DNA from: an uncultured Pseudomonadota bacterium
Lineage (GTDB): Bacteria; Pseudomonadota; Gammaproteobacteria; Acidiferrobacterales; UBA6901
Length of the DNA: 64,000 nucleotides
Assembly: GCA_963698375.1 (NCBI GenBank)
Contig: CAVOQN010000006.1
Span: 165,488 to 229,487 of the forward strand
Direction of reading: 5' to 3'
The notes beneath the pieces were generated by a model. That model worked only from the letters and a program-made list of their open reading frames with translations, did not search any database and was not told the origin of the DNA. Within the stretch, counting starts at the first letter, position 1. Every line of letters begins with the position of its first letter. Shown here piece by piece: positions 33,159 through 61,651 of this stretch. The translations under genes were made by a program, and so were the position numbers.

Positions 33159-33216
33159 GACGTTTCTCCGTATTGAGTTGATGGTATTCGGTTTCAGGAA
33201 TGTTCGTTCGCCCGGC

Positions 33217-34011: not shown

Positions 34012-34109
34012 GACAGGGCTCCTTGGATAATGATGAACGTGCACGCAGGCTACGCCGCCCGACCCCGGCCCACTAAAGCCAAACACGCCACCAACCGGAC
34101 ATATCAGCC

Positions 34110-35168: not shown

Positions 35169-35279
35169 CCTGTCCTCGTGCACGGGTGCTTCGCTTCATT
35201 TGCAGTAGCCCGGGTTTCGGCAGACACTGCAAGGCTTGGTCCGCAACCGCGGAGCAAGCGAGCGAAACGGAGGCCGACC

Positions 35280-36128: not shown

Positions 36129-36220
36129 CCGGATCCAGTCCGTAGCGTTGTGTTGACACACCCAGTCACCGCCACAGGGGGGAAGCAGCACAGGCGCAGG
36201 GAAGCACGGGTTTTCATATT

Positions 36221-36252
36221 TATAAAAAGAAAAGGCCCGGTGATGACCGGGC
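36221..36252 (-). terminator. rho-independent terminator (hairpin GCCCGGT-CATC-ACCGGGC plus T-rich tail on the minus strand)
   Basis: Lies between convergent genes. An A-rich run on the plus side could make it bidirectional. Confidence 0.6.
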
Positions 36253-36285
36253 TCGAAGACAAAGTGAAAATGATTTATGAACCGT

Positions 36286-37829: not shown

Positions 37830-37903
37830 GCTTTTCTCCCGTGGTGATCGGCGCAGGGCTTTGTTGTGTGGGTCGACGTGATTATCCGAAACCGGACGCC
37901 GGA

Positions 37904-38146
37904 TTAAAACCGTTTGGTCAATTTCCGGATGCGCTGTCGCAGGGCGTCCGGCGCGACGGCGATTTCGGGGGCCTTGATCATCCCGTGCAGGCGCTTGTCG
38001 AACTCCATGCGTGAGAAGCAGGCGCGGCATTTGTGCAGGTGCGCATCAACCGCGGCGTGATCGTTCGGTTCCAGTTCGTTGTCGAGGAACTCGAACAGCA
38101 TGCGGATGGCTTCGTCACAGTTCAGTGTGCGGGGTTCTTTGCTCAT
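37904..38146 (-). CDS. RsrA-type ZAS anti-sigma factor (small, soluble)
   Basis: 80 aa. C10, H36-x3-C40-x2-C43 (HLHKCRAC). ATGA overlap with the sigma gene stop. Confidence 0.85.
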   Translation of the reverse strand: MSKEPRTLNCDEAIRMLFEFLDNELEPNDHAAVDAHLHKCRACFSRMEFDKRLHGMIKAPEIAVAPDALRQRIRKLTKRF

Positions 38147-38793
38147 TGTTCCTCTTTCGGTGGCGCGTCCACCAGCCCCTTGTCGAGGGCGTGTTGCCAT
38201 AGACACTTCTGCATCATGCTGCGCGCCCTGGCCAGGCGCGAGCGCACGGTGCCGACCGGGAGGTCCAGGTTCTCCGCGATCTCGTGGTACTTGAAACCTT
38301 CAACGTCGGCCAGCATCAGCACCACGCGAAAAGATTCGGGCAGGCTGGCGAGCGCCGACTCGATGTCATCATGCAGCAGCCGGTCGAGGAACTGTTGTTC
38401 GGGGTTTCCCCACCACAGTAGCACCGGCTGGTGCAGGCGCTCGAAGATCGAGAACGGCCGGTCATCGCCCTCCGGCTCCTCGATGTATTCCTCGTGCGGT
38501 GTGCGGTTCACGGCCCGGCGCCGCTCGCTGATGAAATGATTGGTCATGATGCGCATCAGCCACGCCCCGATGCGCGTCGGGTCCTGCAGCGTGTCGATAC
38601 TTTTCCACGCATGCTCAACCGTGTCGGCCACCAGGTCTTCGGCGTCGTGCGGATTGCGCGTCAGTCGCCGGGCCTTGCAAAAGAGCTGGCCGAGGTTGGT
38701 GTCGATGTACTGCCCCAGCAGCTCGAGGGAGGGAGTCGGAGAGTTCATCTGCCGAATGATCACCACGTCTGTTTTAAGTGTGATCCCGATCAT
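38143..38793 (-). CDS. ECF (sigma-70 family) RNA polymerase sigma factor
   Basis: Region 2 DAEDLVADTVEHAW and region 4 VGTVRSRLARAR. Start at 38793 (GGAGGG 8 nt upstream). Alternative start ATG 38748. Confidence 0.9.
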   Translation of the reverse strand: MIGITLKTDVVIIRQMNSPTPSLELLGQYIDTNLGQLFCKARRLTRNPHDAEDLVADTVEHAWKSIDTLQDPTRIGAWLMRIMTNHFISERRRAVNRTPHEEYIEEPEGDDRPFSIFERLHQPVLLWWGNPEQQFLDRLLHDDIESALASLPESFRVVLMLADVEGFKYHEIAENLDLPVGTVRSRLARARSMMQKCLWQHALDKGLVDAPPKEEQ

Positions 38794-38880
38794 ACACGAA
38801 CCCTCCGGCTTCCCGGGGCACGGGCCGCCGCGGGGGAGCAAGTGTAGTCGGAATGCGGTGTTTTCCTGTTCATAAGGGGC

Positions 38881-38909
38881 AAGACGCAAACCCCCGGCAA
38901 ATGGTTCCC
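38881..38909 (-). promoter_or_regulatory. candidate ECF promoter GGGAAC-N17-CGTCTT (sigma operon)
   Basis: The motif recurs at 38955, 58192 and 58732. Confidence 0.55.
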
Positions 38910-38954
38910 GCCAGTTTCGATGTTCCGGAAAAAGTTTTGCCCCTGCCCGGGGAC

Positions 38955-38984
38955 GGGAACTCTTTCGCGGGCGTGTTGCGTCAT
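38955..38984 (+). promoter_or_regulatory. candidate ECF promoter GGGAAC-N18-CGTCAT (divergent methyltransferase)
   Basis: Lies 67 nt upstream of ATG 39051. Confidence 0.5.
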
Positions 38985-39050
38985 GCAGCCTAACGGCGGA
39001 ATAAACCGCCCAATACCAACCACCAGCACTACTACTACGGAGGATTTACC

Positions 39051-39854
39051 ATGAGCCTGACCTGCCCAGTTAATTTTGACGTGGACTACCTGCGCCAGCA
39101 GGTGGAAATTGAATACGACCGCGTGGCCCGCGAGCCGCATGGCGAGTTTCACTTTCACCGTGGTGCGGAATACGCCCATCGCTACCTCAACTATTCGCGC
39201 GAGGACCTGAGCCTTGTGCCGACCGTAGCCAGCGACCGTTTCGCCGGGGTCGGCAACCCGCACCGGGTCGGGCCGATTTATCCCGGCGAAGTGGTGCTGG
39301 ATCATGCCTGCGGTGCCGGCATGGACCTGATCATTGCCGCGCACCACGTTGGCCCGCGCGGCCGGGTGATCGGCGTGGACATGACACGTTCCATGCGCGA
39401 GAAAGCGGCCGAGGGCGTGCGACTCGCCGGTGTGGCCGACCGCACCCAGATCCTCGACGGGCTCTATGAGCAGCTGCCATTGGAAGACAACAGCGTGGAT
39501 GTCGTGATCTCGAACGGTGTCATCAACCTGGCGCCCGACAAGACCCAGGTGTTCAGCGAGATCAACCGGGTCCTGCGCCCGGGTGGCCGGGTGTTCATCT
39601 CCGACGTGGTGATCGCGCACGAGCTGAAGGTCGAAACGCGCAGCAATCCCGATATCTGGGCGGCCTGCATCGGCGGCGCGTTGCAGGAGCATGAGCTGGT
39701 CGAACTGGCCCTCGGCGCCGGCATGAAGAATGCGCGCATCACCGAGCACTTCGACTGCTTCCGCGACACCCCGGCGGAGCGCAAGGTGGCCAAGGCGCTG
39801 AACGTGCACGGCGTGAATTTCTTCGCCAACAAGGCCTATCAGGTGTATCAATAG
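39051..39854 (+). CDS. ArsM-like SAM-dependent methyltransferase
   Basis: Motifs VLDHACGAGMD, SNGVINLAPDK and IWAACIGGAL. GGAGGA RBS. Confidence 0.85.
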   Translation: MSLTCPVNFDVDYLRQQVEIEYDRVAREPHGEFHFHRGAEYAHRYLNYSREDLSLVPTVASDRFAGVGNPHRVGPIYPGEVVLDHACGAGMDLIIAAHHVGPRGRVIGVDMTRSMREKAAEGVRLAGVADRTQILDGLYEQLPLEDNSVDVVISNGVINLAPDKTQVFSEINRVLRPGGRVFISDVVIAHELKVETRSNPDIWAACIGGALQEHELVELALGAGMKNARITEHFDCFRDTPAERKVAKALNVHGVNFFANKAYQVYQ

Positions 39855-40071: not shown

Positions 40072-41030
40072 ATGCGCAAGGAAACCCGGGCTTTACTGGC
40101 CGTCCTGCTGCTCGTTACCAGCACGCTGTGCGCCGCGTTCGAAATCAAGGAATACCCGGTTCCGAAAGGCGCGCACCCGCACGATGTCGCGCCGGCCGCC
40201 GATGGCGGCGTGTGGTACACCGCCCAGCATCAGGGCGCGCTCGGGTATCTCGACCCGAAAACCGGCAAGACCCGCCACATCCCGCTCGGCAATGGTTCCC
40301 GTCCACATGGGGTTATCGTGGGGCCGGATGGCGCCGCGTGGATCACCGATTCCGGTCTCAACGCCAATCGTGCGCGTCGACCCGAAAACCGACAAGGTCG
40401 AAGTCTTCCCGCTGCCCAAGGGCACGCCGAACGTCAACCTCAACACCGCCACGTTCGATAACGCCGGCATCCTGTGGTTCACCGGCCAGAACGGTTACTA
40501 CGGCAGCTTCGATCCCAAAACCAAAAATAACCAAGGTGTTCGAGGCCCCGCAAGGCCGCGGGCCGTATGGCATCTGCACCGCGCCGGATGGCAGCGTGTA
40601 TTACGCCTCGCTCGCCGGCAGCCACATCGCGCGCATCGATACCAAAACCGGCAAGGCCACGGTCATCGAGCCGCCCACGCCGTACCAGGGCGCGCGCCGC
40701 GTGTGGGCGGATTCACAAAACCGAATCTGGGTCAGCGAATGGATCTCCGGCCAGGTGTCGCTGTACGACCCGAAAACAAAAAAATGGAAAGAATGGAAAG
40801 CCCCGGGCGACAACCCGCAGGTGTATGCGGTGTACGTGGACAACAAGGACATTGTCTGGCTGTCGGATTTCGGCGCCAACGCCATGCTGCGCTTCGACCC
40901 GAAGACCGAAAAGTTCACCGTGATCCCGAGCAAGAGCGGCAACGCGCGCGTGCGCCAGATTCTCGGCCGGCCCGGCGAGGTGTGGTTGCCGGAGTCGGGG
41001 GCGGATAAGTTGGTGGTGATACGGGAGTGA
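40072..41030 (+). pseudogene. Vgb (streptogramin lyase)-like beta-propeller protein with two homopolymer frameshifts
   Basis: Three ORF segments (40072.., 40184.., 40128..41030) read through as FEIKEYPVPKGAHPHDVAPAADGGVWYT...IVRVDPKT...KITKVFEAPQGRGPYGI... Breaks at AA 40366-67 and A5 40523-27. Confidence 0.75.
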
Positions 41031-41117
41031 TGGAATAAGAGTGACTAGCCAGAAAATAAATCTGTCCCGGTTTTAGTCCCGATTCTGTTTTTTATGACGG
41101 CATGTTTTTTTATCAGA

Positions 41118-41150
41118 CCTTAATGCCGGGTTGCAAACCCGGCATTAAGG
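41118..41150. repeat. perfect 15-bp inverted repeat (CCTTAATGCCGGGTT-GCA-AACCCGGCATTAAGG)
   Basis: Read directly from the sequence. Lies 37 nt upstream of the NYN gene start. Confidence 0.8.
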
Positions 41151-41186
41151 AGGTCTAATAAAAGTTGGTGCTCAAGGAGAAACACT

Positions 41187-41730
41187 GTGGCCGAACTCGT
41201 ATATGTCGACAATTCCAACGTGTTCATCGAAGGCGAACGCGTTATGGCTGTTGAAACAGGGATTGCGATGAACATTTACGACGCTATGAACAACCGAATT
41301 CTGGACAACTCCTACAAGATTGATTTCGGTCGTTTGCACGAATTTCATAGCCGGTAAAGATCGGTCCAATATTAAGAGATGCATGCTATTCGGCAGCCGT
41401 CCTCCCCCCAACGATTCAATTTGGCAAATCGCCAGAAAAGCAGGCTTCGAGGTAATCACCGAAGATCGAAATGTTGCAAACAAAGAAAAGAAGATCGACA
41501 CAGGAATCGTCGCGGCTATGACGAAAGACGCCTATACCATCGCAGACAAAGCTAATGATACGATTACCCTCGTCGCGGGTGACGCAGATTTCGTACCGTC
41601 GATTCGAATGCTCAAGGATGACGGATTCAATATAGAAGTAGCGTTCTGGGATCATGCTTCCAGAGAGTTGCGGGAGGTATGTTCTAGATTCATCTCCCTT
41701 AACCCAATACTCAAGCATTTAGCCTATTAG
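41187..41730 (+). pseudogene. NYN (LabA-like) domain protein, one frameshift
   Basis: GTG 41187 after AAGGAGA gives VAELVYVDNSNVFIEGE...RLHEF. Continues in ORF 41320..41730 (..LVAGDADFVPSIRMLKDDGFNIEV). Break at TTT 41343-45. Confidence 0.7.
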
Positions 41731-41811
41731 GCTTGAGCGCTAACGAGTCAATCGCGCTATGCTAAAAGTGTCGAGGCTATTTAACTTGATGGAAAAACCA
41801 GTATTCCCTTA

Positions 41812-42002
41812 GACAACAAGGTTTTCGTCTAGATGTCGGATTTCGGCGCGAATGCCATGCTGCGCTTCGACCCGAAGACCGAAAAGTTCACCGTGATCCC
41901 GAGCAAGAGCGGTAACGCGCGCGCGCCAGATTCTCGGCCGGCCCGGCGAGGTGTGGTTACCGGAGTCGGGGGGCGAATAGGTTGGTGGTGGTGAGGGAGT
42001 GA
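41812..42002 (+). repeat. degenerate duplicate of the Vgb-like gene 3' end
   Basis: Aligns base for base with 40839..41030 apart from a few substitutions, a 2-nt deletion and a premature TAG. Confidence 0.8.
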
Positions 42003-42138
42003 CTGATAGTTTTGAATCTATTATTTCGAATGGCGTAACAAAGTATTACAGAGCTTTCGGGCCACTTGACTGCCTCACCGTACTTTACCATTATGAACCG
42101 AAGTATCCCAAAGGACTAAAGATCTTCCATGTACGTCT

Positions 42139-42585
42139 ATGACAATGAAACAGGCTGAAGGCAACACGGCGATGAAGTGTCTCGCACCCCTTGTCGGGAT
42201 ATTTTCCGGATCGATGCTTGGCTGGGCACTGTTTTTTCTATCGCCGGATTTCGCATCGGAAAAAATCACTGTGGGCGATATTTGCGCGCGACTATATGGC
42301 TTGGCATTCGGATTTTATGGTTGGGGTATTGCCATTGTTATCGGCCAAAACAAGAGTCTTTTTTGCGGTGGCTTCAATGAGTTTATGAGTGAAGATCGTT
42401 TAAGGATAAGCGGGCTTGCAGTGGTTTCTGTCGTGCTTCTCATAGTAGATGCGGGTTTGTTAGTGAAAGGCCACTACGAGATTTATTCAGTAATCTGGGT
42501 TATTTTGATGTTTGGATTTCTCGGCGAGGTTGGCTGGGCAAATCCGTTATATATACCTAAAAAGTTTATCGACTTTTTTATTTGA
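42139..42585 (+). CDS. hypothetical membrane protein (AT-rich)
   Basis: 148-aa ORF with about 4 hydrophobic segments. I recognise no family. Confidence 0.55.
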   Translation: MTMKQAEGNTAMKCLAPLVGIFSGSMLGWALFFLSPDFASEKITVGDICARLYGLAFGFYGWGIAIVIGQNKSLFCGGFNEFMSEDRLRISGLAVVSVVLLIVDAGLLVKGHYEIYSVIWVILMFGFLGEVGWANPLYIPKKFIDFFI

Positions 42586-42624
42586 GTGAATGACTGTGTT
42601 TGTCTGGAAAACGGATACTGTCTT

Positions 42625-43077
42625 ATGAAAAAGATGATTATTGCCAAACGCAACGCACGTGTACTCGGTCTGGTTGTCGGTATCATGTGGCTGACCACGT
42701 GCCTAACCTCAATGCTTTTGGTTCTAGATTTAATTCTAAGCCGAAGTGTGACCATTTATGGTTTGGTTTACCCATTGGTCTTGGCCTCGTGCGTGATAGC
42801 AGGTTTTGTCGGCGCTACCGTATTGTCGAAGCTGCTTGCGTCGTTATTTACGGTTCCCAGCGCACCAAGTGTCCGGACTATTTCTTCACCGAATAAGTAC
42901 ACTCTCGCCGGAAGTCCGGCAGCCTTTTGTTCGATAGTAGCTATTGCAGTGATTGCACCGGTTCATTTCGTTGGCGGTGTGGCGTTATCTTCCGATACGA
43001 CATCCGCCCCTATTTACCTCAGTGATGACACACAGGCAACTCCTAGCCCATCGGAAGTAAAAAATTTCGGTAATTAA
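42625..43077 (+). CDS. hypothetical membrane protein (AT-rich)
   Basis: ORF 42586..43077 trimmed to MKKMIIAKRN. Hydrophobic segments are present. Confidence 0.55.
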   Translation: MKKMIIAKRNARVLGLVVGIMWLTTCLTSMLLVLDLILSRSVTIYGLVYPLVLASCVIAGFVGATVLSKLLASLFTVPSAPSVRTISSPNKYTLAGSPAAFCSIVAIAVIAPVHFVGGVALSSDTTSAPIYLSDDTQATPSPSEVKNFGN

Positions 43078-43096
43078 TCTGAGCGCTACTTAAAAC

Positions 43097-43513
43097 ATGT
43101 CAAACGATAAAAAATATCCATCGGTTATTTGGTCCATCCTTGCGGATGACGTCAGACAGGAAACGGGCTCCAAGATATCCATCATTGGCGCTTATACTGG
43201 CAACGATATAACAGTTACGCCAACACAGCAGTTGCCGACAGGTCAATCGATTGGATTTCCGTTGACAGTATTGTATGTATTCGAAGGTGTCGAAGGTGAG
43301 CACGAAGCGCGGCTAAACATCTTCGATCCATTAGGTAAAGCAGTTGGGAATGGAGTTCTGAAGTTTAATCCGGGCAAGGTGAGTACTGTTAACGCGATAT
43401 TTAAGTTACCAAATTTTGTTGTATCTGAGTCTGGTCAATATACCGCCAAACTTTCATTTGGTGATCAAAAACCATACGAATTCAAGTTCAAGGTTAAAAT
43501 CGCACAAGCGTAA
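43097..43513 (+). CDS. hypothetical soluble protein (AT-rich)
   Basis: 138-aa ORF with beta-rich composition. I recognise no family. Confidence 0.6.
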   Translation: MSNDKKYPSVIWSILADDVRQETGSKISIIGAYTGNDITVTPTQQLPTGQSIGFPLTVLYVFEGVEGEHEARLNIFDPLGKAVGNGVLKFNPGKVSTVNAIFKLPNFVVSESGQYTAKLSFGDQKPYEFKFKVKIAQA

Positions 43514-43516
43514 GAA

Positions 43517-43661
43517 TTAAAGGGGTCAGTACCCTTTTAGCCTCGCAGTACCGCAGAATCCAGTCAGATTGAACGGCCACGCCATTTCATTGCACGTGCT
43601 GTAACAACGCCTGTTCGACCTCGTCCAGCGAAAACTTGCCCACCTCGACAACCGTGGCCCG
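43517..43661. repeat. 145-nt direct repeat, copy 1 (contains the 3' end of a lost minus-strand gene)
   Basis: About 90% identical to 44794..44939. The minus strand reads ..ATVVEVGKFSLDEVEQALLQHVQ*. Confidence 0.8.
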
Positions 43662-43668
43662 CAACTAT

Positions 43669-43742
43669 GGGGTCAGGTCTTGCAAGTTAACTTCCACTAA
43701 AATCAAATCATGGCGCAAATTGATTGCTCAAGACCTGACCCC
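43669..43742. repeat. palindromic repeat, GGGGTCAGGTCTTG family
   Basis: GGGGTCAGGTCTTG-N46-CAAGACCTGACCCC. Confidence 0.75.
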
Positions 43743-43816
43743 GTTTCACAGCGGAGTTGGTTTCTCGGACAATGTGAACGATTGCGGATCAAAGCTGCCT
43801 GCGAAGGAGATAACGC

Positions 43817-44797
43817 ATGAAAGCAGTTGTGTATGAGAAATACGGGCCGCCCGAGGTTCTTCAAATTCGGGAGGTTGAAAAGCCCGTACCCAAGGACAAT
43901 GAAGTCCTGATAAAAACACATGCGACAACGGTTACATCCGGGGACTGGAGGGTGCGGAGTCTCAATGTGCCTGTCGGCTTCGGGCTCATCACGCGTTTGG
44001 TATTTGGAATTACAAGACCAAGGCAACCCATACTCGGGACAGAGCTGGCGGGTGTCGTTGAATCGGTCGGCAACCATGTAAGCAAATTCAAGGTCGGTGA
44101 CCAGGTTTTTGCGTTCAGCGATGCCGCCATGGGTTGTTATGCGGAGTACAAATGCATGCCACAAGACGGGGCGATGGCATTAAAACCGGCCAACCTGACC
44201 TTTGACGAAGCCGCCGCCATCTCGTTTGGCGGCACAACGGCATTGAATTTCCTCAGGAGAGGAAAACTTCAGCGCGGAGAAAGCGTACTCGTCATTGGGG
44301 CGTCCGGCGGGGTAGGCACCGCAGTGGTGCAGCTTGCCAGGCACTTCGGCGCCGACGTGACCGGGGTGTGCAGTAGCGCGAACGTGGAATTGGTGAGGTC
44401 ACTGGGCGCCCGTCATGTTATCGACTACACCAAAGAAGACTTCACGCAGAATGGCAAAACCTATGACATCATTGTCGATACCGCCGGCACGGCGCCGTTC
44501 TCCCGCAGCAAGGCTTCATTAAAGGCAGGCGGCCGCCTGCTACTGGTTCTGGCTGGGCTGCCAGACATGCTTCTGATTCCATGGGGGGCAATGACAAGCA
44601 ACAAGAAGATCATCGCCGGGCCAGCGTCCGGACGCGCGGAAGATCTGCGTTTTCTCGCGAGTCTGGCTGAGACCGGTGAATTCAAACCTGTCATTGATCG
44701 GCGCTATCCGTTTGAGCAGATCGCCGAGGCACACCGCTACGTCGATTCCGGACGCAAGAGGGGAAACGTCGTCATCACGCTGAAACATGACAATTAA
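43817..44797 (+). CDS. NADPH:quinone oxidoreductase / zinc-type alcohol dehydrogenase (MDR) family protein
   Basis: MKAVVYEKYGPPEVL..., GASGGVGTAVVQLA Rossmann motif, AAGGAGA RBS. Confidence 0.9.
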   Translation: MKAVVYEKYGPPEVLQIREVEKPVPKDNEVLIKTHATTVTSGDWRVRSLNVPVGFGLITRLVFGITRPRQPILGTELAGVVESVGNHVSKFKVGDQVFAFSDAAMGCYAEYKCMPQDGAMALKPANLTFDEAAAISFGGTTALNFLRRGKLQRGESVLVIGASGGVGTAVVQLARHFGADVTGVCSSANVELVRSLGARHVIDYTKEDFTQNGKTYDIIVDTAGTAPFSRSKASLKAGGRLLLVLAGLPDMLLIPWGAMTSNKKIIAGPASGRAEDLRFLASLAETGEFKPVIDRRYPFEQIAEAHRYVDSGRKRGNVVITLKHDN

Positions 44798-46053: not shown

Positions 46054-46491
46054 TTACGGCTTCAGGTAGGCGTACTTTTCCTTGACCTGGAGTCGCGTGA
46101 CCTCACGGACGCCGGAGGGCACGAGCTTGATGACCGACAGAAACTTCTTCGGGTCGAGGTTTCTGCGTTTCAGGGTGATTTCGCAGACGCGGAATTCCAC
46201 ACCCTTGGACGCCAGCTTTTCCACGGGAATGCTGTAGGGATTACCTTTCTTGTCTTCCGTGCCTTCCATCAGGAAATCGACCCCGCTGGAGTGAGTGACC
46301 ACGACGATCTTTGCATTCGGTTCGACTTCCAGATGGTTGCTGATGTTGCGCAACGCGTCCGAAGCCTGCTCATTGCCGAGGTTCACGTGATAAAGCACCT
46401 TCTCCACGTCGCTGTCGGCAGCCATCGCCATGCCCGAAATTGCAATAGCACCGATCGCACCGGCGATCAGAAATACTTTACGAATACCCAT
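46054..46491 (-). CDS. periplasmic DsrE/DsrF-like (COG1416-type) protein
   Basis: Signal peptide. Motifs KVLYHVN...IVVVTHSSGV...GVEFRVCEITL...VPSGVREVTRLQ..YAYLKP. Confidence 0.75.
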   Translation of the reverse strand: MGIRKVFLIAGAIGAIAISGMAMAADSDVEKVLYHVNLGNEQASDALRNISNHLEVEPNAKIVVVTHSSGVDFLMEGTEDKKGNPYSIPVEKLASKGVEFRVCEITLKRRNLDPKKFLSVIKLVPSGVREVTRLQVKEKYAYLKP

Positions 46492-49479: not shown

Positions 49480-49944
49480 ATGGATATCCAACGACTTGCC
49501 GTTCTCCTTTCCATTTGTTTTGCCGTAACCGCTTCTGTTGTCGTGGCCGACGATGTCCCGGGCATCAAGGACGGCGACCGGTTGACACAGGACGTTGCCG
49601 GCAAAGTCGCTGACATCTCCACCCCGGACTTGCAGCGCGCGATCGAGAAGATTCCGGACCTGGTGCTGATCGACATCCGCATGCCGAGCGAAATCGAGTC
49701 CATGGGCGGCGCCATCAAGGCGCCGCAGAACGTCAACATCCCGCGCGGCTGGCTTGAATTCCGCGTTACCAACACTGCCCGGAGCAAGGACACGCCCATC
49801 GTCGTGTACTGCGGCGGCAACATTCGCAGCGTTCTGGCCGCCCACACGCTACAGCAGATGGGCTACACCAACGTGAAGAACTACGCCGACGGTTTCTTCG
49901 GCTGGAAGCAGAAGGGGTTGCCGGTCAAACAGCAAGACAAATAG
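49480..49944 (+). CDS. secreted rhodanese-domain sulfurtransferase
   Basis: Signal peptide. Active-site loop VVYCGGNIRS. Confidence 0.85.
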   Translation: MDIQRLAVLLSICFAVTASVVVADDVPGIKDGDRLTQDVAGKVADISTPDLQRAIEKIPDLVLIDIRMPSEIESMGGAIKAPQNVNIPRGWLEFRVTNTARSKDTPIVVYCGGNIRSVLAAHTLQQMGYTNVKNYADGFFGWKQKGLPVKQQDK

Positions 49945-54470: not shown

Positions 54471-55079
54471 ATGAAGATGAAAAACAAAATACTGATCGGA
54501 ATTGGAATTCTGGTTGTCATTCTGGCTGTTGCATGGGTCTTTGCCGAGCCAGTGGAAAAGTATAAGGCTGGCGACGCGTTCCCGCCGACGAAACTCGTGA
54601 ACATACACGGTGTTGAGGTCACCATCCCGAACTCAAAATCAAAATGGATTCACCTTCAATTCCGCAGATTTGCCGGCTGCCCAATCTGCAACTTGCATCT
54701 TCAGTCATTCTTAAAAAGAAACTCAGAGATTGAAGCAGCGGGTATTCGTGAGGTTGTCGTATTCCACTCGCCCAGAGAGTCGCTGCTGCCGTATCAGGGT
54801 AAATTCCCGTTTGATGTCATCGGCGATCCCGACAAGAAGTTGTACGCACAATTCGGCGTCGGGACGTCAATATTTTCCTTGCTGGATGTACGCGCCTGGC
54901 CGGCTATCGTGCGAGGCAATTCTGCAAAAGACAAACCGACAGTGGATCCGGAGGGCAGCGTTTTGGGTTTACCGGCAGACTTCCTCGTCAATTCAGAGGG
55001 CACAATTGTCGCCAGTCATTATGGCAGACATTCCTACGATCAGTGGTCGGTAGATGAACTTCTGGCGCTTGCGAAATAG
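54471..55079 (+). CDS. peroxiredoxin-like (AhpC/TSA, redoxin) family protein
   Basis: N-terminal TM or signal segment. FRRFAGCPICNLHL motif. Confidence 0.8.
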   Translation: MKMKNKILIGIGILVVILAVAWVFAEPVEKYKAGDAFPPTKLVNIHGVEVTIPNSKSKWIHLQFRRFAGCPICNLHLQSFLKRNSEIEAAGIREVVVFHSPRESLLPYQGKFPFDVIGDPDKKLYAQFGVGTSIFSLLDVRAWPAIVRGNSAKDKPTVDPEGSVLGLPADFLVNSEGTIVASHYGRHSYDQWSVDELLALAK

Positions 55080-55192
55080 AAATTCGAATCCGGGGGCAGA
55101 TTTATTTACAGCGCGCGTATCTGCAGGGACAGTGGAAAGTGCTTGCGTTGATAAGCAATATTCCCTCTGCCCCCTTTCCCGTCCTCGTCAGA

Positions 55193-55498
55193 TTAGAAAC
55201 TGGAGCAGGCTGGCCCATCCTTGCCCGCAAGGACGCCTTTGATATCCGGATGATTTTTTAGCTCGCCCAGTATTTTGCTGTAGAGCGCGTCAGGCGTATT
55301 TCTGGCGAAGACAACATCAAGATAGCCGTCCTCTCCAATGACATAACTTGTGAATTCGTCCGCATCGTACTTAAAAAGTATATTGGTAACGGCAGTACTG
55401 GTTTTTGCCTGAGCATCCTCTGCAAGAACTGTTTCAGTACCAGCGATTCCGCAGAACATCATGAACGTAAATAAAAAAGGCGTTATTTTCCGACGCAT
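55193..55498 (-). CDS. small secreted hypothetical protein
   Basis: 101-aa ORF with a signal peptide. I recognise no family. Confidence 0.55.
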   Translation of the reverse strand: MRRKITPFLFTFMMFCGIAGTETVLAEDAQAKTSTAVTNILFKYDADEFTSYVIGEDGYLDVVFARNTPDALYSKILGELKNHPDIKGVLAGKDGPACSSF

Positions 55499-55915
55499 TG
55501 TAATTCCTCGCTTGTAGATCAGGGCAACACCCTGACGATCCTAATCACCAGCAGTTGATATATTAGGTGTGGCAAAGGCGTATCGTTTTTTTGTCGTCCG
55601 TGTTTTGAGTGTAGTTCGACTGAGTGCAGAGTACAGGCGCATCTCATTGCCTGTCAGGCCCTCGTTTGGGATGGGCGTCAACTGATCGCCGGCTATCCGA
55701 TCGAAGAAACCAGCCCCATCGACTGCTCCAGTGAGAAGAGACGAGTGATGTCTATCCGGAAACCCAAGGCAAAAAGTAGACGCCTTGTTGCGGCGTATTT
55801 TCTTTCAGGACCTGACGGTTTGCATGCTCATGGTAGTGTCCTTTTTGGTAGTTAGGGACACCAAGCCTAGCCGGGGCCTGCTGACAGCCTTATGTCAGTA
55901 GGCTTTGAAAAATAA

Positions 55916-55940
55916 TGCCTGTCGAAGCGGGGATCGAACT
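55916..55940 (-). other. tRNA 3'-end-like fragment (T-loop plus acceptor 3' strand), not a complete tRNA
   Basis: The minus strand reads GTTCGATCCCCGCTTCGACAGGCA. No matching 5' half or anticodon arm. Confidence 0.3.
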
Positions 55941-56073
55941 ATGGGGGCAGACCACGGATCCTTCTGTATTGATGAATGGGCCTGGTGCAAGACGCAGCCT
56001 TTGTCCCAACTTCTCAACTGAGAATCTTTTGTCCTTGACCTGAACTAATACCGGAAGATTGGTCATTCCCGAC

Positions 56074-56526
56074 TCAGTGTAAATAGGCGTAACCGTCGTG
56101 TTGCAAGCGGACGATCTCCGCATCCGCCATGGGCACGAGCTTGATGAAGTCCTCAAAATCGTTCCGGCCGAAGCCTTGCATTTTTGCCGAAGCCTGACAA
56201 AGCCGGAATTGGATCACGTCGCCGATAGCGAGATCCCGTGCGCGCCTGGCATGGTCCTGGTGATGTTTGCGCGTGCCTTTCGCGAACGGTTGAATCGCAC
56301 CGTCGTGGATTACGACGACGATTGAGGCGGCGAAGGGATCGCTGCCATAAATAGTCTGCAGCAGACTAACCCGATCGAGAATCTGCATTAATTTGGAAGG
56401 ATCGGCGCTGGAGACGTCGTACACCACCTTTGCCGGTGCATACCGACCTGAATCGGTCGCCCTGACGGGCGCGGCAACCAATACCAGCATCAATGCGGCG
56501 ATGACGTAACGGATTGGCATGTTCAT
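56074..56526 (-). CDS. periplasmic DsrE/DsrF-like (COG1416-type) protein
   Basis: Signal peptide. Motifs KVVYDVS...IVVVIHDGAI...FRLCQASA...VRLQHDGYAYLH. Lies 8 nt after the anti-sigma stop. Confidence 0.7.
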   Translation of the reverse strand: MNMPIRYVIAALMLVLVAAPVRATDSGRYAPAKVVYDVSSADPSKLMQILDRVSLLQTIYGSDPFAASIVVVIHDGAIQPFAKGTRKHHQDHARRARDLAIGDVIQFRLCQASAKMQGFGRNDFEDFIKLVPMADAEIVRLQHDGYAYLH

Positions 56527-56534
56527 CCGGCGAA

Positions 56535-56795
56535 TCAGAAATTGTCGATCAGCTTCTTCAAACGATTCTGCAGCGAAGGGGGAGTTTTATCCGCGCCGGT
56601 TTTCTTCAGGCGCTCGTTGATCTCCCGCTCGATCTGGGCGCGGGAAAAGCAGCTGCGGCAGTGGTCGAGGTGGTGCTCGATCATGTTTATGTCTTTCGGA
56701 TTCTTCAGCTCGCCATTCAAGTACGCATAGAGATGATCGAACGCCTCCAGGCAGTCGCTGTCCAGGTTTTCGGGCTTGTCGGGTGTGTGTGTCAT
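56535..56795 (-). CDS. RsrA-type ZAS anti-sigma factor (small, soluble)
   Basis: 86 aa. C15, H42-x3-C46-x2-C49 (HLDHCRSC). ATGA overlap with the sigma stop. Confidence 0.85.
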   Translation of the reverse strand: MTHTPDKPENLDSDCLEAFDHLYAYLNGELKNPKDINMIEHHLDHCRSCFSRAQIEREINERLKKTGADKTPPSLQNRLKKLIDNF

Positions 56796-57409
56796 GAGTG
56801 CGATTCCATCTGGTTGCAGTTAGGTACAAGACCGGCATCCTGTGCGTGCTGCCACAGGGATTTTTGCAGCAAGGTGCGGCCCCGGTTCATTCGTGAACGG
56901 ATGGTGCCGGGTGAGACATCCAGAACCTCGGCGGCATCGTCGTAGGACAGCCCTTCGATGTTGATCAGCACCACCACCACACGGAACGACTCGGGCAGGC
57001 TTTCAATCGCGGCGAGCAGGTCGTTGCCGAGCAGTTTATTGAATACTTCCCGCTCCGGGTTGGCCCACCAATTAAGAAACTCATCGGATTGATGGATAAG
57101 CAGGCTGGCGATTTCACTGTCATCACCTGCCGTGGACAATTCATCGTATGCGGTTTCCGTCGGGCGAACGGATTTCTTGCGGTAATCGCTGAAATAGCAG
57201 TTGTGGAGAATGCGGAACATCCACGGGCGGAAACGACCCTGATCCTCCAGGCTGTCGAGGGACGACCACGCCCTCGATGCGGCCTCCGCGACCAGGTCTT
57301 CGGCATCGGCGCTGTTGCGGGTGAGCCGCAGCGCCACCGAATACAGTGAGTGCATGTTGTCGTCGATGCGTCGGCTGAAGAAGGCCTTCTTGTCGTCTTG
57401 ATCCGACAT
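56792..57409 (-). CDS. ECF sigma factor, paralog of 38143..38793
   Basis: Motifs DAEDLVAEAASRAW, WWANPE, LPESFRVVVVL and PGTIRSRMNRGR. Confidence 0.9.
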   Translation of the reverse strand: MSDQDDKKAFFSRRIDDNMHSLYSVALRLTRNSADAEDLVAEAASRAWSSLDSLEDQGRFRPWMFRILHNCYFSDYRKKSVRPTETAYDELSTAGDDSEIASLLIHQSDEFLNWWANPEREVFNKLLGNDLLAAIESLPESFRVVVVLINIEGLSYDDAAEVLDVSPGTIRSRMNRGRTLLQKSLWQHAQDAGLVPNCNQMESHS

Positions 57410-57413
57410 CGTG

Positions 57414-58145
57414 TTATCCCGCGGCCATTCCCGATTGATAAACCCGTATACCACCCGGAGACAGCAGGCGCCAGTTCTCGTTCGTCAATGGCGCGGTTGC
57501 CAGCAGCACCTGCGAGTTCCGGCTGATCGATGTATAGAAGGTCTGTTCCAGCACATGCAGCTGTGTGTGGGCATGAACAAAGAGGTATTCGCCGTTGCTG
57601 AGAATGAAATTGAATTCCCCGAGTGCAGACAGCTCGTTGACGACCGGCTCTATCGCGGCCGTCACGTCGCCCGGAAAAATTGCGCTGCCGTGTTTAACAT
57701 TGGTTGCGATGGCATCCAGCAGCATGCAAAAAGCCCGCTCGGAATCGGTATTCCCCAGCGGCTGAAACCGGCCGGGGGTGCATTGACTCACATCGGCCAA
57801 CCCCGGCAGTTTGCCGTTGTGCGCGAAAATCCAGGAGTGGCCATTCCATTCCCTCTCGAAGGGGTGGGTGTTGGCGGCCGTCCGGCCAGCGCTGGCGGGA
57901 TTGGCCCTGCGAATATGGGCAACCACGGTTGTGCTTTTCAGACGCGATTTCGCCAGCAAGGAGAGATAGCGACTCTCTGACGCGGGGACCGCGTCCTTGA
58001 AGACGCGCGAAGCACGGCCCTCGAAATAGGCTACCCCCCAACCGTCGGCGTGCGGTCCACTCTTCCCACCGCGGGGGATCAGGCGCGTCAAATAATGGCC
58101 AACATCCGTTGGCTGGTTCGCGCTCATTGCAAAAAGTTCGCACAT
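57414..58145 (-). CDS. class II glutamine amidotransferase (YafJ-like)
   Basis: N-terminal MCELFAMSAN... with nucleophile Cys2. DGWGVAYFEG. Confidence 0.85.
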   Translation of the reverse strand: MCELFAMSANQPTDVGHYLTRLIPRGGKSGPHADGWGVAYFEGRASRVFKDAVPASESRYLSLLAKSRLKSTTVVAHIRRANPASAGRTAANTHPFEREWNGHSWIFAHNGKLPGLADVSQCTPGRFQPLGNTDSERAFCMLLDAIATNVKHGSAIFPGDVTAAIEPVVNELSALGEFNFILSNGEYLFVHAHTQLHVLEQTFYTSISRNSQVLLATAPLTNENWRLLSPGGIRVYQSGMAAG

Positions 58146-58191
58146 GATCCACCTGTCTTTCGTTATGCCGGAAGCCGGGCCTCTATGGCTA

Positions 58192-58220
58192 TAGACGCAG
58201 TGCGTGGCACGTCAGGTCCC
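58192..58220 (-). promoter_or_regulatory. candidate ECF promoter GGGACC-N17-CGTCTA (amidotransferase-sigma operon)
   Basis: Same architecture as 38881..38909. The -35 lies within hairpin 58211..58249. Confidence 0.5.
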
Positions 58221-58249
58221 GAAAAGAAGAATAAATTTCGGGACCTGAC
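58211..58249. repeat. hairpin GTCAGGTCCCGAAA-N11-TTTCGGGACCTGAC
   Basis: 14-bp perfect stem, downstream of gene 58261..58629. Related to the GTCAGGTC repeats. Confidence 0.75.
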
Positions 58250-58260
58250 GCCAGGGCCGG

Positions 58261-58629
58261 TTAAAACGTAAGCGTTGCCGCGCCTTCGCTGACCACACCC
58301 AGCATGGCGACCGACCCGGCCAGCACTGCGCCATCGATCAGGTCTTCCTTCTCGTAACCGCGCACCTTGGCGCAGGGTGGGCAAACCATTATGGTGCCGC
58401 CGTTGTCCATGATGTTCTTCATCATGTCCTTGATCGGCGGGTCGAGCGGGTTCGGCCGGGCCATTTCCGCCGCACCCTTGCGCGCCCAATCGGCGCCTGA
58501 GCTCACCAGAAACATCGTCACGTTGTAGCCGGAAGCGATGCCGCCATTGGCAACGCTCCATGCCACGGAGGCGCGTTCATCGTTAAAACCGTTCGTTACC
58601 ACAACGACCAGCTTCTTTGTGTCTGACAT
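58261..58629 (-). CDS. DsrE-family protein with CPPC motif (cytoplasmic)
   Basis: ORF 58261..58701 trimmed to MSDTKKLVVVV after GGGAGA. Motifs FLVSSGADW and IMVCPPCAKVRG. Confidence 0.8.
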   Translation of the reverse strand: MSDTKKLVVVVTNGFNDERASVAWSVANGGIASGYNVTMFLVSSGADWARKGAAEMARPNPLDPPIKDMMKNIMDNGGTIMVCPPCAKVRGYEKEDLIDGAVLAGSVAMLGVVSEGAATLTF

Positions 58630-58731
58630 GTGTATTCTCCCAGTTTGGTTGAACTCAGGACATTCGCAATGTCCGTCGATTTGCTCCTCAAGAGCCCGCA
58701 TGTTCCGCAGTTTTGGACATGCTTATGGGTG

Positions 58732-58760
58732 AAGACGCATTGCCATGTCATCCAGGTCCC
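58732..58760 (-). promoter_or_regulatory. candidate ECF promoter GGGACC-N17-CGTCTT (DsrE-family gene)
   Basis: Same architecture as the other three sites. Confidence 0.5.
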
Positions 58761-59014
58761 GGGAATTCAGAAATTTTTATAAAAGCAGAGTTTAAACGTT
58801 GTTTACCCCAACCCATTTCGTTGCTGCGTTTCAGAAAGTGCCAAGCCCGGCAATACCATGGCTGTTATCCCCCCGGTACTTCGTGATAGCCGGATTGAAG
58901 AACTATTTCCCTGTTTTGATCACGCCCACGTCTGATCTCGATCAAGGAAATGGAGGCGTATGGGCGTAAGGTGATAAACGGAATCAAGTAATTCTCAGCG
59001 AGGAGGTGTGTTCC

Positions 59015-59137
59015 ATGCTTCCTGCTCAACCCCAATTACCTGTCAGACAGCCTGTCTGTGGATTATTGCACCCGGTCGATCGTGCCTTTCTTGTTTCAAA
59101 CCGACTGCACGCTGACAAGAAAATGATTAATTGTTGA
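59015..59137 (+). CDS. 40-codon ORF with a strong RBS (speculative small protein)
   Basis: GAGGAGG lies 8 nt before the ATG. Encodes MLPAQPQLPVRQPVCGLLHPVDRAFLVSNRLHADKKMINC. Ends 10 nt before the next gene. Confidence 0.3.
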   Translation: MLPAQPQLPVRQPVCGLLHPVDRAFLVSNRLHADKKMINC

Positions 59138-59146
59138 AAACATACG

Positions 59147-59887
59147 ATGACACACCTTGTAAACGCGAATATCACGATATCGAAACGGTTAACAGAGTTA
59201 CCGGATCAACATATCCAGCGCATGGCAGAAATTGTTGTCCACTATTTTCCCGATCAGAGGTTAATGGAAGAGACGATACGCAATCACCTGAAACAAGCAG
59301 GCACGGTGCGCCTTGCCTGGCGTCAGGATCGAATTGTCGGTTTTTCGATCGCATCAGGATACAAAATGCTGACACCTTTTTACCCGAAACCGGCGAACGT
59401 CATCTTTCAGCGCATGTTGTATCTGGATCCGGATATTTTGTATCGTGGTCTGGGTCTGCGGCTGCTGTCGGTCACCCTGAAAGATCTGTTCGGCTGGCTG
59501 TGGCCGCTCAAACGGCTGGTCTGTATTTGCCGCACCCAAAATCCTGTCGTGGCCAGGATCATGGACATGTATAACGTGTCCTATCCGCAGCATCAGCAGC
59601 CAGTGCCACAAGAAATCAGAAAGTTTGGCGAAAGTTTGTTGCCCATTCTTGGCGCCGATTCTCTGGATGAACAATGTCGGCTGGTCGGCACGCTTACATC
59701 GTTTGCCGGCAGGGACTACACGGATATCTGGAATCGGTTTCTGCATCGTCGTAATAACAAATATGAGACGCTGATGTTGAACAGCGCATTCAAGGAAGAA
59801 AAAGGCCGCATAATCAATAGTGGCGCATTTGTGTTGATGATCGCCTATGCGAAACCACTCCGGTTTATTCGTTATATTTTCCATTGA
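59147..59887 (+). CDS. hypothetical protein with GNAT-like N-terminal half
   Basis: 246-aa ORF. YRGLGLRLL resembles GNAT motif A. The C-terminal half is unrecognised. Confidence 0.55.
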   Translation: MTHLVNANITISKRLTELPDQHIQRMAEIVVHYFPDQRLMEETIRNHLKQAGTVRLAWRQDRIVGFSIASGYKMLTPFYPKPANVIFQRMLYLDPDILYRGLGLRLLSVTLKDLFGWLWPLKRLVCICRTQNPVVARIMDMYNVSYPQHQQPVPQEIRKFGESLLPILGADSLDEQCRLVGTLTSFAGRDYTDIWNRFLHRRNNKYETLMLNSAFKEEKGRIINSGAFVLMIAYAKPLRFIRYIFH

Positions 59888-59966: not shown

Positions 59967-60215
59967 CATTATCGTTCGCTAATGTAGATCAGAAATCTCT
60001 GGCCAGAGCGGAATTTTCTACAATAACCTGTTGCTGCTAGTATTTACGCGTCCTCGACGAGGTATACGAACAGTACCGCAGCCGAGTGAAAAACTGGTTC
60101 TGACTCGAGGGCAGGGCCGGTGGCGAGTAGCCGGTTCTGCGGCGCCCGAATGGACAGGGGTGTCAGGGCGAGTAGCAGCTGGCATGCCGAAGTGTTCACA
60201 GAGAGTTGGATTGGG

Positions 60216-60656
60216 ATGGCATCTGCAAAAGAACAGGCGCAAAAGCTTTCTCGGGAAATTCGCGAGGCGATACGGACTGCACGCACAGCGAGCACACGCG
60301 CCCGGATGGCGGGTGAGGAGTTCAAGGAATTGCTGGTGAAAGTCGAGGCCGAGGCCGAGGCGGCGAGAAATGTGGTGGAATATCCGGGCGGGCGCTACGA
60401 GTGCAACGCCTGTCACCAGCCGGTGATTTTTACGGAAACCCAACGCGAGTTTCCGCCGTGCGACAGTTGCGGCAGTAGCCGTGGGTTTAGCGGCCCGCCC
60501 CCGCGGGTGCTCGACGTGATACCTGCTACGCCTCGAAGATTTTCTGCCGGGCTCTATGAATGCACGCAATGCAACGCACCGGTGGCCTTGGTCGAGAACA
60601 GCGATACGCTCTTGCCTTGCGAGTTTTGTGGCGCAACAGAGTTCCGCGAATTGTAG
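60216..60656 (+). CDS. double zinc-ribbon protein with N-terminal coiled coil
   Basis: ORF 60120..60656 trimmed to MASAKEQ. CNAC...CDSC and CTQC...CEFC. Confidence 0.6.
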   Translation: MASAKEQAQKLSREIREAIRTARTASTRARMAGEEFKELLVKVEAEAEAARNVVEYPGGRYECNACHQPVIFTETQREFPPCDSCGSSRGFSGPPPRVLDVIPATPRRFSAGLYECTQCNAPVALVENSDTLLPCEFCGATEFREL

Positions 60657-60850
60657 AGTTGACGCGGATTATTCAGGACGAAAAGAATAAAAGAGGCTGG
60701 AAAGATATAACATTAATCACCCGACGAAGGGGGTTGAATCAACGGACCAGTGTTGATGAAATGTTTTCCAGCAATGCAGGCTTATTGAACTTCGGATTCC
60801 ATACAACACCGGCTAGACTCACTCACGCACTCAAACAACTGGAGTCAACA

Positions 60851-61651
60851 ATGTCTCTCCTGACCCGTCTCGTTCTCGCAGTTTTGTTGGCGGCCACTCT
60901 GGCCACCCCGGTGCTCGCGCGTGACGAGGCACCAGCTACCGATGCGCAGGGGCTTGTGACGTTTGCCTCGGAGGATGGCCTGGCGCGCCTGGCGCGTTCG
61001 CCGGCGAAGATCGACTTTCCCGCGCTCGCGAACCAGTTCGAGGCGCAAACCAATGCCATGTTCTGCGGTCCGACCACTGCGGCCATTGTGCTCAACGCCG
61101 TGCGCACCCGTAGCTCCGAGCTGCCGCGTGATCGCAGCCGCCTGCGTGCCGATGACTTGCGGTACATACCGGGCACGATCGATCCGGTTATCCCGCGCTA
61201 CACGCAGGATAACGTCATAACGAAAGGTCCGAAGACCCGCGCCCAGGTGATGGGCGAGCCCATCACTGTCGATGGAAAGCAAATCAAGGACTTCGGCTAT
61301 CAGCTACGCCAGTTCGATGAACTGCTCAAAGCGCACGCGCTCCACACCCGACTCGTCATCGTCGACGACAAAAAGTCCGAGAAGGAAATACGCACCGACC
61401 TGGTTGAAAACCTCAAGCGCCTCGGCGACTACGTGGTCGTCAACTACTGGCGCAAGGCGGTTGGCCAGCAGGGCGGTGGCCATATATCACCACTGGGCGC
61501 CTACGATGCGGAATCGGATTCGTTCCTCGTCCTGGACGTGAATCCCGCCAGCGCCGGATGGGTCTGGATGCCAACCACGACACTGGTCAACGGCATGCGC
61601 ACGCTTGATACGGTCGAGAACCGCGGGTATATCCACGTGGAATTGCGCTAA
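60851..61651 (+). CDS. secreted phytochelatin synthase-like (papain-fold) protein
   Basis: Signal peptide. Motifs QTNAMFCGPTTAAIVLNA and GGGHISPLGAYDAESDSFLVLDV...RGYIHV. Confidence 0.9.
   Translation: MSLLTRLVLAVLLAATLATPVLARDEAPATDAQGLVTFASEDGLARLARSPAKIDFPALANQFEAQTNAMFCGPTTAAIVLNAVRTRSSELPRDRSRLRADDLRYIPGTIDPVIPRYTQDNVITKGPKTRAQVMGEPITVDGKQIKDFGYQLRQFDELLKAHALHTRLVIVDDKKSEKEIRTDLVENLKRLGDYVVVNYWRKAVGQQGGGHISPLGAYDAESDSFLVLDVNPASAGWVWMPTTTLVNGMRTLDTVENRGYIHVELR

Follow-up and report, generated by a model that had tools for sequence, protein, structure and literature searches.

The closest described relatives of the locus reported here are SigR-RsrA of Streptomyces coelicolor and SigH-RshA of Mycobacterium tuberculosis (ECF12), in which a two-domain extracytoplasmic function (ECF) sigma factor is paired with a small soluble zinc-binding anti-sigma (ZAS) factor that carries a Cys residue and an H-x3-C-x2-C motif. 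The locus lies in a 64,000-nt stretch of contig CAVOQN010000006.1 from an uncultured gammaproteobacterium; this whole stretch is called the window, and coordinates are positions in it. Five genes on the minus strand encode a cytoplasmic DsrE-family protein (DsrE122), a class II glutamine amidotransferase-fold protein, an ECF sigma factor, a ZAS anti-sigma factor and a secreted DsrE-like protein (DsrE150). They are the five open reading frames named in an original prediction made from the letters of the window, and all were present as it had placed them. The locus shares with the actinobacterial systems a translationally coupled sigma and anti-sigma gene pair, for which autoregulation is probable. 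We lean towards reading it as an autoregulated SigH/RsrA-type ECF/ZAS thiol switch in a proteobacterial lineage, with the cytoplasmic CPPC-containing DsrE122 as its direct output.

Regulators of other kinds also control proteins of this type. Among the genes controlled by CstR/YrkD-type sulfane-sulfur repressors are homologs of DsrE, rhodanese and TusA, and together with SqrR/BigR and sHdrR/SoxR these repressors resemble the present module in their DsrE-, rhodanese- and TusA-type targets and in the cysteine-based sensor that is expected here (PMC9918477). However, these regulators are DNA-binding repressors, unrelated to the module in sequence and mechanism, and no sqr or pdo gene is linked to the module. 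ECF26 RpoE1/RpoE4 of Sinorhizobium meliloti, which responds to sulfite, is a known case of an ECF sigma factor devoted to one inorganic sulfur compound; it is autoregulated and has a small regulon (PMC3511301). That system belongs to another ECF group, has a COG5662-type anti-sigma factor where the module has a small RsrA-like ZAS, and its output is the sulfite dehydrogenase SorT and not a DsrE protein.

Domains were called with Pfam against gathering cut-offs and with NCBIfam against curated cut-offs. The sigma factor contained only sigma-2 and sigma-4 domains, with Sigma70_r2 at 17-80 and Sigma70_r4_2 at 130-180 (TIGR02937, 87 bits against a cut-off of 42.9), and is thus a group IV (ECF) sigma-70 factor. 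Its best PDB match was M. tuberculosis SigH (5zx2, E 5e-28) and its best NCBIfam match SigH_actino (TIGR02947), at 128.5 bits, below the cut-off of 251.55. A C-terminal tail of the form A-x-D-x-G-hydrophobic is common to both proteins, and SigH is without the WWANPE linker insertion of the module sigma factor. The anti-sigma factor matched the RsrA structure 5frf (E 3e-7) and scored 53.3 bits with NCBIfam RsrA (TIGR03988), below the cut-off of 62.5. The ligands C15, H42, C46 and C49, which had been pointed out beforehand, were present and invariant in 16 sequences (15 orthologs and the paralog near 38 kb), and their arrangement, H-x3-C-x2-C with an upstream Cys/His ligand, reads as a class I ZAS motif.

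Apart from its proteobacterial host and its scores below both NCBIfam cut-offs, the module differed from SigR-RsrA and SigH-RshA in its predicted promoter (GGGACC-N16-GCGTC instead of the GGAAT-N18-GTT of SigR), in RsrA tuning residues that are not conserved, and in a regulon that appears very small and centred on DsrE rather than on thioredoxin and mycothiol genes. The module was set apart from the SigR-RsrA family because it stays below the curated cut-offs and differs in promoter, tuning residues and taxon. A proteobacterial RsrA homolog, Rmet_0596, is mentioned in the RsrA paper (PMC3177212). RpoQ of Cupriavidus metallidurans was rejected as a match, as it is an ECF16 factor whose anti-sigma factor is bound to the membrane and whose promoter is different (PMC13492112). 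The main text of the ECF classification paper (Casas-Pastor 2021) mentions neither DsrE nor sulfur, and the sigma group may already be catalogued in that classification as an uncharacterised one. Full-text searching of the literature brought up no relevant paper in which DsrE, persulfide or sulfane sulfur is connected with ECF or anti-sigma factors.

To define the conserved part of the locus, two sets of relatives were compared. The first was drawn from the neighbourhoods of sigma homologs and from a species-genome scan with the sigma factor (16 loci, 14 distinct), and the second from a reciprocal scan with an alignment of DsrE122 orthologs (80 metagenome loci, 52 of them with at least 1200 nt downstream of DsrE122). 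All 16 genome loci, from uncultured Gamma- and Betaproteobacteria (Burkholderiales, Arenicellales and Xanthomonadales), had the order DsrE122, sigma, anti-sigma on one strand. Among the 52 metagenome loci, the sigma gene was found in 48 and the anti-sigma gene in 47, the secreted DsrE-like gene in 7, a rhodanese gene in 5 and the amidotransferase gene in 3. Over all approximately 95 loci, these counts were 81 for sigma, 66 for anti-sigma, 11 for the secreted DsrE-like protein (~12%), 9 for rhodanese (~10%) and 6 for the amidotransferase (~6%). Sequence identity was 58-94% for the DsrE122 orthologs and 57-96% for sigma; DsrE122 was the better conserved of the two, mostly with the higher value within the same locus.

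The original prediction had paired a ZAS switch with DsrE-type proteins, and this link held in 16/16 genome loci and 48/52 metagenome loci. Its proposed gene order fared in two ways: the core order of DsrE122, sigma and anti-sigma was conserved, but the amidotransferase-led four-gene operon was not a conserved partner. The YafJ-type amidotransferase placed first in the sigma operon is real here and belongs to a lineage-specific minority (6 of ~95 loci), which makes it a recurrent accessory rather than a defining gene, and the secreted DsrE-like protein that had been seen as an operon output is likewise present but accessory (11 of ~95 loci). From this comparison, the conserved unit is P1 (the predicted promoter 5' of DsrE122), dsrE122, sigma and anti-sigma, with dsrE122 as the first gene of the ancestral operon and the predicted main target of the module. 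The amidotransferase, the secreted DsrE-like protein and the rhodanese are putative accessory members, sometimes recruited with their own promoter copy. The window operon has gained a second promoter copy (P2), a hairpin, the YafJ-like amidotransferase and the secreted DsrE-like protein. In 28 of 79 loci, DsrE122 and sigma lie no more than 60 nt apart, so that one P1 would have to drive the whole three-gene unit.

The promoter motif was derived by aligning the regions upstream of DsrE122 across loci, which displayed a T-rich tract followed by cGGGACCtg-N-tGCGTC(t/a)T. Of 80 distinct loci, 74 had GGGACC-N15/16-GCGTC 5' of the DsrE122 ortholog; the spacer measured 16 nt in 66 of these and 15 nt in 8, and the median distance from the motif to the DsrE122 ATG was 76 nt. 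The window contained exactly two exact matches (0.42 expected), P1 before DsrE122 and P2 before the amidotransferase gene, and no sigma-70-like promoter was found in 55000-59200, where 2.8 were expected. Autoregulation of an ECF factor would use a promoter with an AAC-like -35 and a CGT-like -10 element. Here, the conserved motif lies upstream of the operon, and P1 and P2 would function as promoters. Of 79 loci, 23 carried a P2 copy between DsrE122 and the gene that follows it. Furthermore, the motif preceded rhodanese genes in L003, L004 and L049-L052, and in L073 the amidotransferase gene was located upstream of DsrE122 with its own motif copy. In silico, the genes that share GGGACC-N15/16-GCGTC form one putative regulon. 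DsrE122 had been described as separately promoted; it does have its own promoter-like site, but this site carries the same ECF-type motif that precedes the operon.

One further motif copy was perfect and pointed away from DsrE122. It was located near 2819 in L046 and faced a 381-aa protein (1640-2785, minus strand) with a weak match to the CMD family (22.7 against 23 bits), a family that includes AhpD. This protein may be an extra regulon member. In the dsrE122 leader (58630-58733, minus strand) and its orthologs, the bases just downstream of the -10 element were conserved (GCGTCtTtaCc..tAAGC) and often started a small 5'-terminal hairpin. Across 69 loci, the dsrE122 5' untranslated regions were not significantly structured compared to shuffled sequence (mean z -0.66), giving no evidence for a riboswitch-like leader.

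Another hairpin can form directly 3' of the DsrE122 stop codon. It has 16 bp, a folding energy of -36.2 kcal/mol and a z of -7.1, and its 3' arm is formed by the -35 box of P2 and the first spacer bases. Similar hairpins were found in 22 of the 23 distinct loci that carry P2. The outer stem covaried, with compensatory changes in 5 of 11 pairs; 90% of cells were paired compared to 78% in shuffles, the covariation score was 0.40 compared to 0.21, and none of 500 shuffles reached either observed value. Slid controls scored 0.05-0.12. There was no U-tract 3' of the hairpin, and it is therefore not a canonical terminator. It may attenuate read-through or stabilise the dsrE122 3' end, and in this way DsrE122 would probably be made in excess over the regulators, with P2 keeping the autoregulation.

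DsrE122 belongs to the DsrE/TusD superfamily both by fold and by its Pfam PF02635 score, which was above the gathering score (58.5 bits). In Foldseek searches with its AlphaFold2 model (pLDDT 90.9), the top 13 PDB matches were all DsrE, TusD or YchN proteins (TM 0.66-0.78). The likeness to YchN was weak by sequence (profile against 1jx7, E 0.01), and the fold matched. The CPPC motif, already seen in the original prediction, was invariant as C83-P-P/A-C86 in 15 orthologs and is placed at a strand/helix junction by the model. C83 aligned with the first Cys of the C-X7-C motif in 3mc3. In DsrE3A of Metallosphaera cuprina, the first Cys of C-X7-C is the established DsrE active-site Cys (PMC4175335), and C83 would occupy this active-site position if the alignment carries over to function. 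DsrE122 shares the fold of DsrE3A but is not a DsrE3A protein, since it has C-P-P-C instead of C-X7-C and no recurring hdr, tusA or lipoamide/dihydrolipoamide dehydrogenase neighbours. A profile search run exhaustively over 1.84 billion representatives recovered only 170 clusters at 50% identity (E <=1e-10), mostly with C-x-P-C, and on this basis DsrE122 represents a small and distinct DsrE clade. The JGI label for the family is 'predicted peroxiredoxin'.

DsrE150 was also assigned to the DsrE/TusD superfamily, by a PF02635 score above the gathering score, which was marginal in the window protein, and by its conserved Cys. Pfam DsrE gave 32 bits for one ortholog. The profile built from 10 orthologs reached the DsrE-like structure 2pd2 (E 4e-5), and the only conserved Cys was aligned there. 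On visual inspection of the alignment, all orthologs carry a hydrophobic, signal-like segment at the N-terminus. Thus, neither DsrE-like protein of the original prediction fell into an unrelated family by HMM assignment.

The amidotransferase starts with MCELF, with Cys directly after Met, and matched GATase_4 at 230 bits and PA1307 (PDB 1te5) at E 5e-45. Cys1 together with GATase_4 indicates a class II (Ntn) protein of the YafJ type, as in YafJ/PA1307; unlike these, it is here a predicted accessory member of an ECF regulon. EgtC of ergothioneine biosynthesis was considered and rejected (TIGR03442, 53.3 bits against a cut-off of 218.65). The gene was located between DsrE122 and sigma only in the window and in L007, L028, L032 and L041, and upstream of DsrE122 in L073. 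Recruitment of this subfamily (58-88% identity) took place at two separate positions, in one case along with a promoter copy of its own. In the window, 4 nt separate the amidotransferase stop codon from the sigma ATG, sigma and anti-sigma overlap by 4 nt, and the anti-sigma stop codon is followed after 8 nt by the DsrE150 ATG. Such tight packing would fit a single operon. The 576 nt that separate DsrE150 from the gene after it held no remnant of module genes (blastx), and tRNA and Rfam scans of the window gave no matches.

Table 1. Predicted features of the DsrE122 module and of the paralogous locus near 38 kb (window positions).
Feature	Position	Strand	Basis
P1, predicted ECF-type promoter GGGACC-N16-GCGTC, 5' of the DsrE122 gene	58734..58760	-	exact motif match
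DsrE122, cytoplasmic DsrE-family protein with CPPC, 122 aa	58261..58629	-	Pfam DsrE 58.5 bits
16-bp hairpin just 3' of the DsrE122 stop codon	58209..58251	-	RNA fold
P2, second predicted ECF-type promoter copy, 5' of the amidotransferase-sigma-anti-sigma-DsrE150 operon	58194..58220	-	exact motif match
YafJ-like class II (Ntn, Cys1) glutamine amidotransferase-fold protein, accessory insertion	57414..58145	-	Pfam GATase_4 230 bits
ECF sigma factor, 205 aa, SigH/SigR-like, WWANPE linker motif	56792..57409	-	Pfam Sigma70_r2 and Sigma70_r4_2
Soluble RsrA-like ZAS anti-sigma factor, 86 aa, C15/H42-x3-C46-x2-C49	56535..56795	-	Pfam zf-HC2 24.5 against 22.2 bits
DsrE150, accessory DsrE-like protein, secreted (signal peptide), with a single conserved Cys (FRLCxAS)	56074..56526	-	Pfam DsrE 24.5 against 22.7 bits (marginal)
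Sister-family sigma factor, 216 aa	38143-38793	-	paralogy; length from gene calls in the near-identical locus L108
Sister-family anti-sigma factor, 80 aa	37904-38146	-	paralogy; length from gene calls in the near-identical locus L108
Sister-family predicted promoter GGGAAC-N16-GCGTC, 5' of the paralogous sigma gene	38883-38909	-	motif
Sister-family predicted promoter GGAAC-N17-GCGTC, 5' of the ArsM-like methyltransferase gene 39051-39854	38956-38982	+	motif

Several DsrE122 orthologs, at approximately 73-80% identity, were found without an adjacent sigma gene. Five of these loci (L042, L044, L045, L060 and L100) carried an HxlR-family regulator gene directly downstream, encoded on the other strand. 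In L077 and L079, DsrE122 was followed directly by rhodanese, and L077 also carried a LysR-family gene upstream of this pair. The ECF promoter motif was absent from the DsrE122 strand in all seven of these loci. The position of the sigma-less orthologs beside other regulators (HxlR, or LysR with rhodanese) fits a role of DsrE122 as the regulated effector, a protein, often accompanied by rhodanese, to which different regulators may have been wired.

The sigma and anti-sigma factors had been called paralogs of a second pair near 38 kb, and this was confirmed with 45% identity between the sigma factors (E 1e-53) and 33% between the anti-sigma factors (E 4e-14). The WW(G/A)NPE insertion noticed in both sigma factors proved to be a family signature, as WWANPE occurred in 114 of 120 relatives of the module sigma factor, and for the 38-kb sigma factor 93 of 120 relatives had WWGNPE. 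Relatives of the 38-kb sigma factor had a common layout, in which an ArsM-like methyltransferase gene diverges from sigma, followed by an anti-sigma gene of 80-84 aa and a second methyltransferase gene. In L111 and L112, the divergent operon also carried a DsrE protein of 121-126 aa with a GVCP(P/A)CA motif. The sister family displayed (G)GGAAC(C/T)-N15/16-TGCGTC on both sides of the intergenic region, and the back-to-back promoter arrangement of the window (38883-38982) recurred in L110-L112. The predicted promoters of the two families differ mainly at one -35 position (GGGACC compared to GGAAC). By these comparisons, both families appear tied to C-P-x-C DsrE proteins, and the sister family would control ArsM-like methyltransferases and, in some genomes, a CP(P/A)C DsrE protein.

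The proposed thiol switch would work as follows. In the resting state, the anti-sigma factor would hold the sigma factor through the zinc site C15/H42/C46/C49. A thiol-reactive signal would modify the anti-sigma cysteines, causing zinc loss and sigma release, and the freed sigma factor would transcribe from P1 and P2. DsrE122 would then accept sulfur on C83 and resolve with C86, and it might reset the anti-sigma factor in the way that thioredoxin resets RsrA.

The outputs are persulfide-carrier folds (DsrE, rhodanese and a periplasmic DsrE-like protein), and sulfane sulfur, as persulfide, polysulfide or thiosulfonate, is therefore favoured, tentatively, as the likeliest signal. The CstR/YrkD precedent, with its control over DsrE, rhodanese and TusA homologs, supports the same choice (PMC9918477). 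The original prediction had suggested a reactive-sulfur or glutathione-conjugate response; the recruitment of rhodanese supports sulfur handling, but no result favours glutathione conjugates specifically. Several points weigh against a sulfane-sulfur switch. The identity of the signal is one that we infer purely from the outputs and the precedent, and sqr, pdo, sox and tusA were not recurrently linked to the module across loci. The diamide sensitivity of RsrA is tuned by E39, E40, L45 and E46 (PMC3177212), and these residues are mostly not conserved here (D44, which is variable, H45, F50 and S51); therefore, redox sensitivity is not predictable from sequence. All named relatives are uncultured metagenome-assembled genomes, and the window carries ArsM-like methyltransferases and a phytochelatin-synthase-like gene, which fit a metal(loid) theme. 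A bolder version of the sulfane-sulfur reading would make this the first ECF/ZAS sulfane-sulfur sensor, in which persulfide or polysulfide bridges the zinc cysteines of the 86-aa anti-sigma factor and frees sigma, the induced CPPC DsrE is both detoxifying sulfur acceptor and anti-sigma resetter, stripping off the sulfur, and the sister family couples the same sensor type to the methylation of toxic species. We consider this combination rather unlikely in full.

A generic thiol-oxidative or electrophile switch, like actinobacterial SigR-RsrA, with DsrE122 as a CxxC thiol-disulfide oxidoreductase and not a sulfur carrier, agrees with SigH and RsrA as the closest characterised relatives, with the modelled CPPC position at a strand/helix junction, as in CxxC redox proteins, and with the 'predicted peroxiredoxin' label. 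The divergent L046 gene with its weak CMD-family match points in the same direction, as does the HxlR-family gene adjoining some orthologs, since the HxlR family includes thiol-based electrophile sensors. We judge this switch unlikely, because the recurring accessory members are rhodanese and DsrE-like proteins and not thioredoxin, glutaredoxin or Msr, the redox determinants of RsrA are not conserved, and the regulon appears tiny compared to the broad SigR regulon. It is also quite unlikely that the module senses a thiophilic metal(loid) (As(III), selenite, tellurite, Hg, Cd or Cu) that attacks the anti-sigma zinc site and is bound or carried by the CPPC of DsrE122. The sister family consistently occurs with ArsM-like methyltransferases under its predicted control, a phytochelatin-synthase-like gene and zinc-ribbon proteins are near in the window, and vicinal cysteines are good soft-metal ligands. 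However, the metal-themed neighbours were not conserved around this family in other genomes, the ArsM-like proteins scored below NCBIfam arsenite-methyltransferase cut-offs, and rhodanese and DsrE are sulfur-transfer folds. The amidotransferase-led four-gene operon had originally been seen as the functional unit, responding to glutathione conjugates. The four genes are indeed tightly packed behind P2, the same subfamily was recruited at two positions, once with its own promoter copy, and GATase_4 relatives such as EgtC cleave gamma-glutamyl bonds, the EgtC model match here being sub-threshold. This reading is improbable, as the amidotransferase is absent from approximately 94% of related loci and DsrE122, which it had treated as separate, is the most conserved member. 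Chance adjacency of the genes without shared regulation is contradicted by the comparative data and can practically be dismissed: order and strand are kept in approximately 80 loci at 57-96% sigma identity, and the promoter motif is common to them.

The module is well defined and widespread; it is conserved and uncharacterised, and it may be a new way to sense reactive sulfur. The reactive-sulfur sensors found in the literature are DNA-binding repressors (CstR/YrkD, sHdrR and SoxR), and an ECF/ZAS version, if true, would add a new sensing architecture. SqrR, BigR, FisR and OxyR are further examples of reactive-sulfur sensors. A sulfur sensor of this kind would also give the first functional handle on the distinct C-x-P-C DsrE clade. 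The module is compact, with three genes and a sharply defined promoter motif, and is common in uncultured sediment and wastewater Gamma- and Betaproteobacteria. It could be rebuilt in E. coli, so that the hypothesis is testable without growing the hosts. Furthermore, the sister families, differing at essentially one -35 position, may serve as orthogonal ECF parts.

Methyltransferase genes cluster in the window at 32196-39854, with a homocysteine S-methyltransferase-family gene (32196-33278), a UbiE-like gene (35178-36128) and ArsM-like genes (37065-37826 and 39051-39854). The ArsM-like proteins scored 179 and 196 bits, below the NCBIfam arsenite-methyltransferase cut-off of 263. The ArsM-like gene downstream of the 38-kb anti-sigma gene (36286-37826, minus strand) is a single 514-aa gene in the 99.6%-identical relative L108, where one protein joins a methyltransferase to a hydrophobic multi-pass region and a Cys-rich tail. 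The loss of 1 nt from a G run (GGGG to GGG) at ~37217 splits the window copy into two frames; either the homopolymer was misread in sequencing or the gene is a genuine pseudogene. The C-terminal tail of the fusion is Cys-rich (36286-36450, minus strand), and Pfam gave no match for this open reading frame; the tail may resemble DUF2282/bufferin-type precursors.

The window encodes a third DsrE-family protein (46054-46491, minus strand), whose N-terminus is hydrophobic and signal-peptide-like; it shares 35% identity with DsrE150, and its Pfam DsrE score was 38 bits. At 49480-49944 (plus strand) is the gene of a rhodanese whose N-terminus is of a similar kind. The ECF promoter motif was not found upstream of either gene. 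Approximately 1.4 kb upstream of P1, on the opposite strand (60120-61651, plus), the window encodes a zinc-ribbon DUF1451-like protein and a phytochelatin-synthase-like protein (Pfam, 117 bits), and both neighbours were also found in close relatives. In other loci, a YeeE/YedE-type Sulf_transp gene was located near one module (L001, 8085-9176, minus strand) and a TauE-family gene near one sister-family module (L110, 7674-8753, minus strand), TauE being a sulfite exporter; each was a single case and not recurrent. The stretch at 41000-44000 of the window has a low GC content (46% compared to ~60%). Its open reading frames comprise one for an NYN-domain protein (41320-41730), one for a DUF6941 protein (43097-43513) and two without a Pfam match. 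It may be an acquired island.

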